This document shows, piece after piece, positions 25,450 to 35,033 of a DNA stretch of 64,000 bases (the first letter of the stretch is position 1; each line of letters starts with the position of its first letter). The stretch lies in NCBI GenBank assembly GCA_964436645.1, contig CAYTDO010000003.1, forward strand, positions 939-64,938, read 5' to 3'. The notes under the pieces were generated by a model. The model did no database searches and was not told where the DNA came from. It saw only the letters and a list, made by a program, of their open reading frames with translations. Made by a program: the position numbers and the translations under genes. Source of the stretch: an uncultured Methanosarcinales archaeon. Its GTDB lineage: Archaea; Nanobdellota; Nanobdellia; Woesearchaeales; GW2011-AR4.

Positions 25450-26502
25450 TTATTGGATTTTCTTTTTCTTCTTTGTTTTGTTGTCTTCCTGCTCTTCTTC
25501 CATTGCAGCTTCCAGAAGGTCCTTTTCTTCGCTTCCATATTTTTCCTGCTCAATTGAATCCAATTCGCCATCATTACCTGAACTTTCTTTTTTTTCTTTT
25601 TCTTGATTGGATTCTCCTTTTGGATGCAGAATATTTTCAACGCGCTCATCTACCATTCTTTCCTCTTCAGAGCTTAGTTCTATGCCGCCTTCCAAGGGCT
25701 CTTCCTCTTGCGGTTCTTTTTCTTCTGCTGCTTTTTGAACTTCTTCCTTGATATGCTGGAGCCTTTCCCGGTCTTTCTCGAGCTCTTCCTCGGAAGGCTC
25801 ATCTACAACTTCAAGGCTTCCGAGCTTCCCTTCAAAAATTGATTGAGATGCTGTTGCAGGCTTTTCTTCTGCCTTTTTTTGCCCCTCCTGGCCATAAGGC
25901 TCAAGATCTATGCCTTTTTCCATCTGCTCCTTCATTTTCTTTTCTTCTTCTGCACTTACTTTTTGCTGTTCCCTTATTCTTTTAACTTCGGACTCCTTTT
26001 CTTCTATGGCTTTTGCTATTGTTGAGAAATCGTGGAAGACTTCCTTCAGCTTCTCTTCCGGAAGGTCAAAATATTCGAAGAATTTTTGAGAGAGCTTTAT
26101 CAGATTGGTCCTTCCATGCTTCTGACGGGTAATATAGCCCATCTCCTCAAGCTCTTTAAGATGATCATATGCCTTGTTTGTCCTGATTTTAATTAGTTCA
26201 GATTGCTTTATTGGATACTTAAATGCTATTACTGCCAAAGTCTCAAGAATAGTCCTGCTTAATTCAGTTTCTGTCACTATCTTGCTGACTATGGGAAGGA
26301 AGGGCTCCCTCACTGTAAGTTTCCAGGAATCTCCTTCATTCACGAGCATGATGCTTGAGTTCTTTTCATCATATTCCATTTTGAGCTCTGCTAATGCAGA
26401 CTTTATATCTTCAGCCTTGGATTTAGTAATCTGAGAAAATTCCCCTACGCCCATCTTCCTTCCTGAAGAAAATAGCAGAGCTTCAATATCTTTCTTAAGC
26501 AT
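25450..26502 (-). CDS. scpB: segregation and condensation protein B (ScpB) with a ~200-aa acidic disordered C-terminal extension
   Basis: The N-terminal 150 aa show the two winged-helix repeats of ScpB (IEALLFSSGRKMGVGEFSQIT..., ILETLAVIAFKYPIKQSELIKIR). The rest is an E/K/D-rich tail. Confidence 0.7.
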   Translation of the reverse strand: MLKKDIEALLFSSGRKMGVGEFSQITKSKAEDIKSALAELKMEYDEKNSSIMLVNEGDSWKLTVREPFLPIVSKIVTETELSRTILETLAVIAFKYPIKQSELIKIRTNKAYDHLKELEEMGYITRQKHGRTNLIKLSQKFFEYFDLPEEKLKEVFHDFSTIAKAIEEKESEVKRIREQQKVSAEEEKKMKEQMEKGIDLEPYGQEGQKKAEEKPATASQSIFEGKLGSLEVVDEPSEEELEKDRERLQHIKEEVQKAAEEKEPQEEEPLEGGIELSSEEERMVDERVENILHPKGESNQEKEKKESSGNDGELDSIEQEKYGSEEKDLLEAAMEEEQEDNKTKKKKKIQ

Positions 26503-28190: not shown

Positions 28191-29612
28191 ATGAATACAG
28201 CAAGAAGATTAACTGCAAATTTTTTGGTCCTTGCATTCTCTGAGTTCTTTTCTAAGGCAATGCAGCTGGTGGTTTTTGTTTACATTGCAAGAATCCTTGG
28301 GAAAGAAAGCTTCGGCCTTTTCAGTTTTGGGCTTGCTTTTGGGCTGTTAGCAGCTATAATCGCGGACTTTGGATTGAGCTCCCTGATTGTAAGGGAGATA
28401 AGCAGGAGCAGGAAAGACGCGGAAAAATATCTTTCCAATGCTATTGCAATAAAAATTGCGCTTTCACTAATCACTGTAGGCTTATCTTTTCTGATATTAA
28501 ATATAATTGGCTATGGCAGCCAGGAAAAAACTATTGCATATGTGATGCTAGCTTTCGCAATATTGCAGACTTTTACAGACATCTATTGCTCGATATTCAG
28601 GGCATTTGAGCGGATGCACTATGATGCGTCAATAAAAATACTGAGGATGGTGCTGCTGGCTGGAATTGTATTTTTTGCTCTTAGCGGCAATTCTTCTTTG
28701 GTAACTTTATCCTCATCTTTCCTTTTAGCGGAGATTATAGTTTTGGTGGTAGCTATTATATTGGTTTATTTTAAATTTGTAAAGATAAGCCTGGATTTTA
28801 ATCTTTTGTTGCTGAAAAAACTGCTTAATGAAGGGATGTTTTTTTTCCTGTCAATTGCGTTTGCAGGTCTTTTCCTGTATATTGATATAATCATGCTTTC
28901 GAAACTTGGTTCGTCATCTGAGGTTGGAGTTTATGCCGCTGCATCAAATATAGTCCTTGCATTGCTTTCAATACCTATGATGTATGGGAATGCAATTTAT
29001 CCGGTTATATCACGATTTTACATAAATTCTAAAGAAAGCCTAAGGTTTGTTTACGAGCGCTCGTTCAAGTACATGCTCATCCTTGGAATTGCAGTTTCAG
29101 CAGGAATTTTCGCAACTTCAGATAAAATAATAGGGGTTTTTTATGGAAGTGAATACGCAGCTTCTGCAATTGTGTTGTCAATAATAGCCTGGCAATTATG
29201 CCTCAGGTTCCCAAATATCATATCTGGAGTGACTTTATCTTCGACAGACAAGCAGCGCTCCAGGGTTTTAAGCCAGGGGCTCATTGTACTGGTAAAAGTG
29301 GCGCTTAATTTGCTGCTTATACCCATATATGGAATCGTAGGCGCTGCACTTGCGACATTGCTAACAGAAGCAGTATTTTTTGTCGCATACAACTTCTTTA
29401 TTTCAAGATATGGAATAAGGATAGACTACATAAAGCCAGTCATCAAGCCTGCAATAGCTGCATTAATCATGATAGCAGTACTTTATTTTATAGGAGATTT
29501 TTTTATTTCGGTTGTTTTGGGGGCAATTATTTACATCTCGGCAATTCTTTTATTGAAAACATTTGATGCAGAAGATAGAAAGATGATAGATAAGATAGTA
29601 AAGAATTCTTAG
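28191..29612 (+). CDS. polysaccharide/oligosaccharide flippase (Wzx-like, MOP superfamily)
   Basis: 473 aa with about 12-14 TM helices and a Wzx-like N-terminus. Confidence 0.75.
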   Translation: MNTARRLTANFLVLAFSEFFSKAMQLVVFVYIARILGKESFGLFSFGLAFGLLAAIIADFGLSSLIVREISRSRKDAEKYLSNAIAIKIALSLITVGLSFLILNIIGYGSQEKTIAYVMLAFAILQTFTDIYCSIFRAFERMHYDASIKILRMVLLAGIVFFALSGNSSLVTLSSSFLLAEIIVLVVAIILVYFKFVKISLDFNLLLLKKLLNEGMFFFLSIAFAGLFLYIDIIMLSKLGSSSEVGVYAAASNIVLALLSIPMMYGNAIYPVISRFYINSKESLRFVYERSFKYMLILGIAVSAGIFATSDKIIGVFYGSEYAASAIVLSIIAWQLCLRFPNIISGVTLSSTDKQRSRVLSQGLIVLVKVALNLLLIPIYGIVGAALATLLTEAVFFVAYNFFISRYGIRIDYIKPVIKPAIAALIMIAVLYFIGDFFISVVLGAIIYISAILLLKTFDAEDRKMIDKIVKNS

Positions 29613-29972
29613 AATGTGTTTAGCAGCTTCAAATCTAATTAGAGAATACCATTCAGATTTGTATTGCCTTGCCTTAAAGTCATGTAGCTTTGTGGTTTTG
29701 TCATATTCTTTGCCAGTATAATCAAATCTAGTTGTTTCTCCTCCCTGTATCGGCTCGCCAAACGGCGAATAAAGACTCTCCTCAACCACATCCCCATTCT
29801 GGTCAGTAATCAAAGAAGTTGAACCCAAGTGATCAGCATGGTAGAAATACTTTGTTTCCCTTAATTTTTCATTATTGGAATTGAACAATAAATACCATGA
29901 AGCTTTATCAAGAATGTTTAATGATTTATTGTAAACAAACGAATAATTCTCGTATTTTTCATCCGCTGAAAT
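29550..29972 (-). pseudogene. remnant of an RHS/YD-repeat protein (RHS repeat-associated core only; 5'-truncated, no ATG; toxin domain absent)
   Basis: The translation ...NYSFVYNKSLNILDKASWYLLFNSNNEKLRETKYFYHADHLGSTSLITDQNGDVVEESLYSPFGE...RFDYTGKEYDKTTKLHDFKARQYKSEWY matches the conserved C-terminal RHS core. The frame opens after a stop with no ATG. The ORF track begins at a TTG. The protein ends about 25 aa after the core. Confidence 0.6.
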
Positions 29973-30000
29973 GAGAACATTTTATGTAATCAATTTTACC

Positions 30001-30225
30001 CTAATTTAAATATTGCCTAATATCTATCTTTTTTATTTTAATAATCAAAAAAATTAGAAAATTGAAGACAATAACAAAACTCAAGCTTCTAATGAATAGA
30101 AATAAAGTAGAGTCATTAGTTTCTTCCTCAATTAAGAATAGTGTATGATAATAAGGAGCAATAAACACCATAATATTCAATAAAACATAGATTAAGATTA
30201 CACTGTATTTCTTAATTTTGCTCAT
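30001..30225 (-). CDS. small hypothetical membrane protein (74 aa)
   Basis: Two TM helices. Adjacent to the RHS remnant. Confidence 0.3.
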   Translation of the reverse strand: MSKIKKYSVILIYVLLNIMVFIAPYYHTLFLIEEETNDSTLFLFIRSLSFVIVFNFLIFLIIKIKKIDIRQYLN

Positions 30226-30339
30226 ATTAAACTACTAAAAGGCTCTATTTATAAAATTTTTTAAATTTTAATATTCTTTAAACAAGAAAAGTTGAAAATA
30301 ATTCACCGTCCACTTATGCCCTTTTCTTCCCCAATATTC

Positions 30340-30684
30340 TTATTTTTTACCTCCTTTTTTTGCTGCCTGTCGTTGCTTATTAATAATTTTAGCAGCTAAT
30401 GCCTCGCTTGCTGCCCTTTGTTCAGATGTTTTTAAAGTGCTACCTCCTGCTGACTTGATGACTTGTTGTATAGAATTGCTACCGAGAGTGCTTGTACCCC
30501 CTCCGCTTCCGCTTGAAGACCAACTATTACTTGCAACCATTGCTTTATTACTATTATCTACTCCATTATTAAAGACATTTTGCAGATAATAATTAGCACC
30601 TATACTAGCAATTTGTTGCCCAATAAATTTTATGTTATTAATGGTAGTAAGACTATTCCCCATAAACATCCTGAGTTTTATCAT
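30340..30684 (-). CDS. small Gly/Ser/Asn-rich hypothetical protein with a basic C-terminus
   Basis: 114-aa ORF. The adjacent upstream ORF (30653-30847) carries a signal peptide, so the two may be one frameshifted secreted protein. Confidence 0.3.
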   Translation of the reverse strand: MIKLRMFMGNSLTTINNIKFIGQQIASIGANYYLQNVFNNGVDNSNKAMVASNSWSSSGSGGGTSTLGSNSIQQVIKSAGGSTLKTSEQRAASEALAAKIINKQRQAAKKGGKK

Positions 30685-30847
30685 AAAATGAAGTCATGCA
30701 AGTATCTTTCTCTTCAAGGCTTATGGAAGGAGTTACTTGTGTATTCTTAGAGATAATATTAGTAAACGAGCTTAACTGGCTTAATGCCGTTATAGAGAGC
30801 AAAATGGCAATAACTGACATAGCTATAACTAAATTTATCTTTTTCAT
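30653..30847 (-). CDS. small signal-peptide-bearing hypothetical protein (64 aa)
   Basis: The N-terminus MKKINLVIAMSVIAILLSITALSQ is signal-peptide-like. Confidence 0.3.
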   Translation of the reverse strand: MKKINLVIAMSVIAILLSITALSQLSSFTNIISKNTQVTPSISLEEKDTCMTSFYDKTQDVYGE

Positions 30848-31014
30848 ATAATTACCCCCGCGTTAAATTTTAAAGTTTTATCGAGATAGATATGACTAAG
30901 AACGCAAAATAGATCGTTGCTAAAACTCACTTTTTTTTAGTTAAATCCGCCCACCAAATGGATTCCTGAGAAAACCTCTATTAAAATCTTTTTATTTTCA
31001 AAATATGCACTTGA

Positions 31015-34888: not shown

Positions 34889-34898
34889 TAAAAAAGGT

Positions 34899-35010
34899 GG
34901 ACAGCTTCCCTAGTTTCCCATGCATTAACACAGTACAGCTAGGAACGGAGGCTTGTTTAACTTCGGAGTTCGGAATGGGATCCGGTGGAACCATGCCCCT
35001 ATGGCCGTCC
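34899..35010 (-). rRNA. 5S ribosomal RNA
   Basis: The minus-strand sequence GGACGGCCAUAGGGGCAUGGUUCCACCGGAUCCCAUUCCGAACUCCGAAGUUAAAC...GGGAAGCUGUCC shows 5S hallmarks (CCGAAC, AGUUAA loop region, helix I pairing GGACGGC/GCUGUCC). Confidence 0.85.
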
Positions 35011-35033
35011 AGCAAATAAGGAGTAATTCTTGC

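Follow-up and report, generated by a model that had tools for sequence, protein, structure and literature searches.

A 1.4-kb locus in a Woesearchaeota-like archaeon as the probable wreck of a Tc/RHS-type polymorphic-toxin operon

Is a short RHS-like reading frame in an archaeon of a small-genome lineage a gene, a spare cassette for one, or the debris of a larger system? The question is raised by a 64-kilobase (kb) stretch of contig CAYTDO010000003.1 from an archaeon placed among the Woesearchaeales (here called the window), for which an earlier note had suspected a decayed polymorphic-toxin/immunity locus. The suspicion was borne out by a toxin tail, an open reading frame (ORF) in the position of an immunity gene, the 5' end of an operon-heading gene and a truncated RHS piece. 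Our conclusion, held with a probability of roughly 85%, is that positions 29613-31014 are what is left, without function, of a decayed Tc/RHS-type polymorphic-toxin operon, the host being a Woesearchaeota-like DPANN archaeon. Four fragments or genes of the Tc/RHS operon type make up a mosaic there, three of them heavily truncated, and each fragment can be assigned to one operon type by specific homologues of its own. Since the gene types match the operon of one relative, locus L017, all four fragment types can be said to co-occur there. Position numbers are those of the window, and all parts of the RHS locus lie on its minus strand:

30848..30887, minus: conserved 5' upstream region of a gene of the 212-residue family (DNA alignment to locus L009 of a Woesearchaeota metagenome-assembled genome, MAG)
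30656..30847, minus: fragment A, a 64-residue signal-peptide ORF, comprising the first ~63 codons of a gene of the ~212-residue Cys-rich family
30659..30664, minus: junction A, TATGGG (pairwise DNA alignments to loci L009 and L012)
30340..30664, minus: fragment B, most of a 114-residue Gly/Ser-rich ORF, comprising the last ~105 codons and the stop of a core/C-terminal (core-CT) protein
30001..30225, minus: part C, an intact 74-residue ORF with two transmembrane (TM) helices (hydropathy and position)
29841..29981, minus: fragment D1, a 47-residue mid-shell piece (maps to loci L017, L002, L006 and L004)
29841..29855, minus: junction B, ACA AAG TAT TTC TAC (T-K-Y-F-Y; codon comparison with L017, L002 and L001)
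29649..29855, minus: fragment D2, the first half of an RHS repeat-associated core (hidden Markov model, HMM, and tblastn matches; comparison with L002)
29613..29648, minus: a spacer of 36 nucleotides (nt) and no recognisable origin, between the end of the RHS homology and the flippase stop codon
29550..29612, minus: antisense of the flippase 3' end, read by the 112-residue ORF (flippase homology to L009 reaches its last residues)
29613..31014, no strand: the lineage-specific segment of 1,402 nt between the convergent flippase and epimerase/decarboxylase-type genes
28191..29612, plus: flippase gene, convergent neighbour of the segment
31015..31947, minus: uridine diphosphate (UDP)-sugar epimerase/decarboxylase-type gene, convergent neighbour of the segment

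The RHS-like frame is open on the minus strand from 29981 to 29550 (143 residues), and both the ORF tool and the NCBI record start it at the TTG at 29888, which yields the 112-residue protein P0001, a singleton at NCBI; all tested window proteins are singletons at 90% identity. The earlier note had allowed that no RHS profile might match the frame. Two do: "RHS protein" of Pfam (PF03527) reaches E 5e-5 and 23.5 bits, less than its gathering score of 27.9, and "Rhs_assc_core" of NCBIfam (TIGR03696) reaches E 1.3e-6 and 28.8 bits where the cut-off is 32.5, with just positions 1-41 of the 76-position model aligned; intact relatives obtain 42.8-56.3 bits with the latter model over positions 1-76. 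Approximately 20 archaeal core-bearing proteins match 29855..29649 in tblastn with E values from 1e-19 to 7e-28, and all of these alignments stop at 29649-29637. The similarity is thus far beyond chance, yet it covers only the first half of the core. The homology to a conserved RHS core that the earlier note had called unmistakable is accordingly real, whereas the core itself is cut in half and both profile scores fall below their curated cut-offs.

The break can be placed to the codon. Fragment D2 reads TKYFYHADHLGSTSLITDQNGDVVEESLYSPFGEPIQGGETTRFDYTGKEYDKTTKLHDFKARQYKSEW, and its closest relative, the core of the Aenigmatarchaeota locus L002 (67% identity), can be followed at the level of single codons until ...HDFKARQYKSEW, with nothing beyond. 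The RHS homology ends in ...ARQYKSEW (29649), 36 nt short of the flippase stop codon. L002 continues with GRFIVPD...NPYFYVDPNGK, the part of the core with the autocleavage motif, whereas in the window 36 unrelated nt come next, followed by the flippase 3' end with its stop codon in reverse complement; these two stretches make up the last 32 codons of the RHS ORF. In RHS toxins, a DPxG-type aspartyl-protease autocleavage motif is situated at the core end (PMC8636562). The second half of the core with this motif, which relatives show as ...PDT...NPY.Y.DP.G(H/K), is absent from the window piece. From 29649 onward there is no toxin domain, as the earlier note had stated, but only the spacer and antisense flippase sequence. 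Its other proposal, a displaced C-terminal cassette, has to be abandoned, given that a core with no C-terminal domain after it is unusable as one.

The frame is just as incomplete at its other end. It contains no ATG, in agreement with the earlier note, the three minus-strand frames upstream of it are all closed, and nothing RHS-like lies upstream. A hidden long RHS frame was sought by translating 29400-30300 and 30226-31014 in the three minus-strand frames and by tblastn with the ORFs of related loci; no more RHS sequence was found, so that no single frameshift restores a gene.

The stretch ahead of the core is not nondescript. Fragment D1 begins with NVLISADEKYENYSFVYN, ends with KLRETKYFY and belongs to the middle of the Tc/RHS beta-cocoon shell. 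Its 47 residues NVLISADEKYENYSFVYNKSLNILDKASWYLLFNSNNEKLRETKYFY map uniquely to residues 845-891 of the 1637-residue TcB-TcC-like protein of L017 (60% identity, E 7e-18), and counterparts are found in an N-terminally cut shell ORF of L002 (residues 133-180, E 2e-13), in L006 (residues 828-873) and in L004 (residues 836-878). The core piece D2 corresponds to residues 1330-1396 of the L017 protein; relative to this protein, about 438 residues between D1 and D2 are missing. At both edges of the gap the relatives read T-K-Y/W-F-Y (ACA AAA TAC TTC TAC at one edge, ACT AAA TGG/TAC TTT/TTC TAT at the other), whereas the window has a single ACA AAG TAT TTC TAC at 29855-29841, which joins shell to core in frame. 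The simplest reading of these codons would be an in-frame deletion of approximately 438 codons by recombination at the 15-nt similarity. Nothing else of the long YD-repeat shell remains besides the 47 residues, the 143-residue frame having no match to PF05593 or TIGR01643, and tblastn with the L017 proteins revealed no trace of SpvB, FG-GAP or TcdB_toxin_midN in the window.

Three small ORFs accompany the RHS piece, and all of them exist as the earlier note had listed them (74 residues with two TM helices, 64 residues with a signal peptide, 114 residues rich in Gly and Ser), although they lie upstream of it on the coding strand and not downstream. The 64- and 114-residue ORFs had been thought to be possibly one frameshifted gene, that is, a single secreted immunity or accessory protein split at a GGGG run, and the sequence invites this explanation, since the ORFs share 32 nt (30653-30684) around the run and a change of 1 nt would fuse them. 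A hypothetical fusion of both, used as a query, nevertheless retrieved two disjoint sets of homologues. Its first 62-69 residues match the N-terminus of ~212-residue proteins (P0010-P0027) and nothing else, whereas P0009 and RHS-core proteins of 314-444 residues match only by the tail; no homologue spans both halves, and the sequence is identical in an independent assembly. A frameshift is thus almost certainly the wrong explanation. The disjoint homologue sets, together with a junction at TATGGG, indicate that the two ORFs belong to two unrelated genes abutted by deletion.

The first of these genes belongs to a family of 212-residue proteins that have a signal peptide and 10 near-invariant cysteines and that correspond to no Pfam family; AlphaFold2 models of the family (17 sequences) reached a mean predicted local distance difference test score of 65.9, a value too low to make a fold search meaningful. 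The best match, P0010 (81% identity), comes from a Candidatus Woesearchaeota archaeon and is listed at NCBI as hypothetical. Fragment A spans columns 1-65 of 231 in the family alignment A1 and keeps one of the 10 cysteines, the other nine being held by the ~150 codons that it lacks; likewise, the L009 protein of this family matches the window by its residues 1-69 only (tblastn). To judge from sequence, fragment A is a homologous fragment of the family and not a member protein. In DNA alignments to L009 and L012, the homology to the 212-residue gene includes the 40-nt upstream region, with a Shine-Dalgarno-like GGGGGT about 7 nt ahead of the ATG, and ends at ...GTTTATG, while the tail homology starts at TATGGG. 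The TATG common to both parents at junction A constitutes a 4-nt microhomology.

The second gene is represented by its 3' end. In phmmer and full HMMER searches against 1.84 billion representative proteins, the 114-residue ORF matches C-termini only, with P0009 (3.6e-27), P0028 (429 residues, 4.7e-20), P0029 (444 residues, 8.1e-15) and P0033 (435 residues, 2e-9), as well as P0030 and P0036 (422 residues), among its homologues. A signal peptide and ...AEEL.L.YDANGNL... stand at the start of these proteins. Their RHS core is complete (in P0029 and P0036, TIGR03696 scores 42.8-42.9 bits over positions 1-76), and past ...NP.K..DP.GH they have a variable segment, often Gly/Ala-rich and hydrophobic. 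Alignment A2 shows them ending in ...DNSNKA...GGGTSTLGSNS.QQVI..AGGSTLKT..QRAASE..AA.II..QR.AA.K..., and fragment B in ...DNSNKA...GGGTSTLGSNSIQQVIKSAGGSTLKT.EQRAASE..AAKIINKQR.AAKK. The parent of fragment B was thus of the signal-peptide/YD/RHS-core/CT type, about 420-445 residues long. The fragment itself has neither core nor toxin domain; its tail is conserved at the DNA level, and the sole hint at a family for it is a weak match to dsrm in Pfam (E 0.069).

The conserved basic tail (P0028, P0029, P0030, P0033, P0026, P0032, P0009; window 30340-30500) is placed after the variable segment, and a conserved extreme C-terminus is odd for polymorphic toxins, which are normally variable there. In L012 (733-1263), a second copy of the tail (...TLGSNTPQQAIRSAGGSTLKTASQRAASEAAAASIINRQRAAAQKSSSSRR) follows the P0009 gene and a 109-residue ORF with three TM helices, in another frame and with no core upstream. 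This copy is another truncated cassette, and tail-only fragments therefore recur beyond the window.

The 74-residue ORF, part C, is intact. It starts 114 nt past the stop of fragment B, directly downstream of the end of a toxin tail, as an immunity gene is expected to, and encodes two predicted TM helices (residues 4-29 and 39-69, by hydropathy). Core-CT genes in six related loci are likewise followed by small, sequence-variable ORFs with two to four TM helices, of 81 residues in L002, 86, 131 and 136 in L003, 133, 100, 172 and 143 in L004, 109 in L012, 175 in L019 and 168 in L023. On the basis of its position and of these ORFs in relatives, the 74-residue ORF may be regarded as a candidate orphan immunity gene. 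A search of 5.8 billion proteins returned no homologue but itself, the ORFs in the corresponding place of related loci do not resemble it in BLASTP, and the small ORFs gave nothing besides noise against Pfam and NCBIfam at E <= 1, including no immunity or toxin family. A TATA-like TTTATAAATA begins 30 nt before its ATG; it would fit a leaderless archaeal transcript, although the AT-richness of the DNA weakens this evidence. The G+C content over the ORF and its flanks (29900-30350) is 0.23, compared with 0.37 for the window. Such a low value could reflect foreign origin, relaxed constraint or the composition of a protein rich in Ile, Phe, Leu, Lys and Asn.

Truncated RHS genes may also be kept for use, and the pieces might form a silent store of cassettes, that is, recombination substrates for a full-length RHS gene elsewhere, with the core stub and the 3' tail as homology arms. 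Arrays of 5'-truncated core-CT cassettes with genes in the immunity position do occur in the DPANN and Methanosarcinales loci, and fragment B retains a tail conserved at the DNA level that is followed by an intact small gene. A usable cassette, however, needs a core arm, an alternative toxin and an immunity gene, and, unlike the core stub of an orphan rhs cassette, the one found here has nothing after it. The tail fragment has lost core and toxin domain, no full-length RHS gene lies within the 64 kb, and the fact that the tail is joined to the start of an unrelated gene favours loss over storage. We therefore consider a cassette store very unlikely.

The pieces could also have been created by the assembler. 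A short-read assembler may collapse or chimerically join repetitive RHS cassettes, so that the real genome would have intact genes; the source is a metagenome-assembled contig, and arrays with near-identical RHS cores are found in L003, L004 and L006/7. Evidence to the contrary comes from the Logan contig L018 (run ERR4904393, 981 nt), which was assembled independently, though it may stem from the same sample as the MAG, and which is 100% identical to the window at 29860-30840. These 981 nt take in junction A, fragment B, the 74-residue gene and the start of the RHS piece at its 5' edge. L018 stops at 29860, 5 nt ahead of junction B, where the assembly graph may branch. Junction matches of 4 and 15 nt are, however, far below the k-mers of assemblers, and a de Bruijn collapse would not join sequences there; both flanks are collinear with relatives, and fragment A runs into in-frame stops beyond its junction. 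Taken together, these observations make an assembly artefact highly improbable. The two ends of L018, 5 nt before the shell/core junction (29860) and 7 nt inside the start of the 212-family gene (30840), may mark branch points of the assembly graph, with further copies of the RHS core and of the 5' part of the 212-family gene in the sample.

The chromosomal context is archaeal. The window encodes an archaeal-type phosphoenolpyruvate carboxylase, an archaeal RqcH, an archaetidylinositol-phosphate-synthase-like protein, ScpB and GyrA. Contig JACPJP010000012.1 (L009; Woesearchaeota MAG GCA_016187495.1) is collinear with it, at protein identities of 61% for RqcH, 79% for UDP-glucose dehydrogenase, 61% for a nucleotidyltransferase, 80% for the epimerase, 65% for the flippase and 77% for a 278-residue protein. 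A relic within such a housekeeping, syntenic context is unlikely to result from binning contamination. The stop codons of epimerase and flippase, two genes of sugar pathways, are 17 nt apart in L009-L011 and 14-18 nt apart in the metagenome contigs L026, L027, L029 and L033, as opposed to 1,402 nt in the window, and the lack of this DNA in seven syntenic relatives suggests that it is lineage-specific. No RHS, tail or 74-residue homologue was found beside the epimerase in 80 metagenome loci (<=81% epimerase identity), and tblastn with the ORFs of related loci detected no further RHS, 212-family or tail sequence elsewhere in the 64 kb. In L009 and L044, an intact gene of the 212-residue family lies beyond the flippase block and heads an operon of large secreted proteins.

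The past horizontal acquisition proposed in the earlier note is compatible with the absence of the 1.4 kb from the seven relatives; on the other hand, the closest RHS homologues are all archaeal, from DPANN or Methanosarcinales, and a recent bacterial origin is therefore not indicated. As to the rarity of RHS systems in archaea, to which the earlier note had also appealed, polymorphic toxins are reported to be generally absent from most archaea, with RHS arrays in Methanosarcina (Zhang et al. 2012, PMC3482391), yet several DPANN contigs carry full arrays.

What the intact system looks like can be seen from L017, in which a 211-residue gene, a TcB/TcC-like protein and a signal-peptide/core protein share one contig and one orientation. 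The operon runs from the 211- and 417-residue genes through the 1637-residue protein, two small ORFs and a 734-residue RHS/PKD shell protein to the signal-peptide/YD/core protein. The 1637-residue protein combines SpvB, FG-GAP, TcdB_toxin_midN, RHS repeats, a full core and a C-terminal domain of ~200 residues. A wreck of such an operon would have arisen by at least three deletions or illegitimate recombination events at short shared sequences (TATG; ACA-AAG-TAT-TTC-TAC), which would have reduced more than 10 kb to 1.2 kb. The survivors would be the promoter region and ~63 codons of the first gene, ~105 codons of the end of a core-CT gene, the gene with two TM helices and a 115-codon fusion of shell to core. 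The 74-residue gene would have been retained as an immunity protein, which would still shield the membrane from the hydrophobic Gly/Ala-rich C-terminal toxins that relatives secrete. Either a full operon once stood between epimerase and flippase or an already fragmentary piece was inserted there. In any case, the remnant can neither form a beta-cocoon nor undergo self-cleavage nor deliver a toxin, and the 112-residue "RHS" coding sequence (CDS) as well as the 64-residue and 107/114-residue ORFs are pseudogene fragments.

Several observations weigh against the reading as a single decayed operon or against its details. The fragment order (tail, gene with two TM helices, shell/core) is not the one seen in L017, in which the cocoon protein precedes the other two; either nested deletions alone are not enough to account for the history, or the ancestral order was a different one. 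The 4- and 15-nt homologies at the junctions are short and could be coincidental. The gene of the 212-residue family heads operons with no detectable RHS genes in L009, L013 and L014, so that fragment A could derive from another operon than the RHS pieces. L018 ends before junctions B and C (29855-29613). As for the 74-residue ORF, it does not resemble the 109-residue ORF located behind the closest homologue of the tail (L012), it is without any homologue, and its G+C content of 0.23 fits a chance ORF in an AT-rich spacer equally well.

Degenerate and orphan rhs fragments beside immunity genes are commonplace in bacteria, for example among the rhs elements of E. coli, and a decayed toxin operon is thus of an ordinary kind, new in the host lineage. 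With bacterial Rhs/TcC YD-repeat toxins, such as Rhs1 of Photorhabdus (PMC8636562), the locus shares homology to the RHS-associated core (TIGR03696, PF03527) and the decay to fragments beside a gene in the immunity position, and its relatives share shell, core, variable CT region and small downstream gene together with arrays of 5'-truncated cassettes. It differs from them in that the host is a DPANN archaeon and in that the remnant has no shell, complete core, cleavage motif or toxin, with a mid-shell piece joined to the core in frame. The core-CT part of the archaeal relatives, moreover, is a separate signal-peptide protein of ~420-470 residues with a conserved basic tail, and we know of no such C-terminal tail in bacterial Rhs proteins.

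The 1637-residue protein of L017, the closest full-length relative of the shell/core piece, has the architecture of a fusion of TcB and TcC, the components of the cocoon reportedly described by Busby and colleagues (Nature 501:547) in 2013. The window, in contrast, has no TcB-type domain, no TcA-like gene was seen within the 10.8 kb of L017, and the best matches of the L017 protein among solved structures, by sequence and weak, are the type VI secretion system Rhs proteins 8qja and 8cp6. The RHS arrays of Methanosarcina (PMC3482391) are likewise archaeal, and the Methanosarcinales loci L004, L006 and L007, which have a main gene and orphan cassettes with small TM ORFs, have cores 50-61% identical to that of the window. 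These are, however, intact multi-kb arrays in large genomes as opposed to 1.2 kb of fragments in a small-genome lineage, and the nearest relatives of the window piece are DPANN copies (67% to the Aenigmatarchaeota locus L002).

Little appears to have been described so far of the host lineage or of how its intact relatives are built. No account of Rhs systems of DPANN archaea was found in the literature searched, which did not include the main survey of archaeal polymorphic toxins (Makarova et al. 2019, mBio). What stands here is a cluster of pseudogenes, and its annotation should say so instead of listing a 112-residue CDS and hypothetical proteins. The relic points to a Woesearchaeota-like DPANN lineage that formerly had Tc/RHS toxin genes and lost them by successive deletions, a loss that fits the genome streamlining expected in small genomes. 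The intact loci L002, L003 and L017 are of more interest and could open antagonism or host interaction of DPANN archaea to experiment.

A split design of RHS systems was observed in DPANN contigs (Aenigmatarchaeota, Nanoarchaeia and a Woesearchaeota-type Logan contig), at L002 167-6789, L003 184-9549 and L017 8119-10838. It consists of a large YD-shell protein with PKD/immunoglobulin-like repeats at its end and no core, followed by a second gene for a protein of ~400-470 residues that has its own signal peptide, few YD repeats, a full core and a toxin; downstream lie small TM ORFs and extra 5'-truncated cassettes. The 212-residue Cys-rich gene, for its part, forms a fixed pair with an overlapping gene of 397-492 residues, of which the C-terminal ~230 residues are conserved, neither being represented in Pfam (L009 10001-15356; L013 10001-19534; L014 8127-16312; L044 12696-20405; L017 205-2090). 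The pair heads variable operons of very large secreted proteins, with S8 peptidase/FG-GAP, PKD/cadherin-like, Laminin_G_3 or Tc/RHS domains, and these operons often adjoin a surface-glycosylation cluster.

A more far-reaching view, tentative and in our judgement rather doubtful, takes the relic as the footprint of a family of Tc/RHS conflict systems that are native to DPANN and exported by Sec, a family of which we have found no description. Its design would be split (shell/PKD and separate signal-peptide/YD/core proteins), with a variable, hydrophobic and Gly/Ala-rich toxin segment between core and basic tail and with an operon headed by the 212-residue Cys-rich protein next to a cell-surface glycosylation cluster; the present locus would have lost the weapon and kept the 74-residue immunity gene. 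If this were true, the cell would be a "disarmed but shielded" member of its population.

At L001 (134-1848), the gene for P0002 (219 residues, core-CT, 59% identity to the window core) is directly followed by a DDE_3/HTH transposase gene, which hints that insertion sequences take part in shuffling cassettes. In the window, a mobile element delimited by flanking repeats was considered and rejected, the only two-copy matches (15-24 nt, 79-88% identity) being judged chance. No transfer RNA (tRNA) gene was found in the window, and the sole Rfam family present is 5S ribosomal RNA (rRNA), with a lone gene at 34896-35012 on the minus strand, 16S/23S rRNA and tRNA being absent from the 64 kb. The ScpB homologue (25450-26502, minus strand, 350 residues) matches the 186-position model by its residues 2-148, and the remainder forms a charged extension rich in Glu and Lys.

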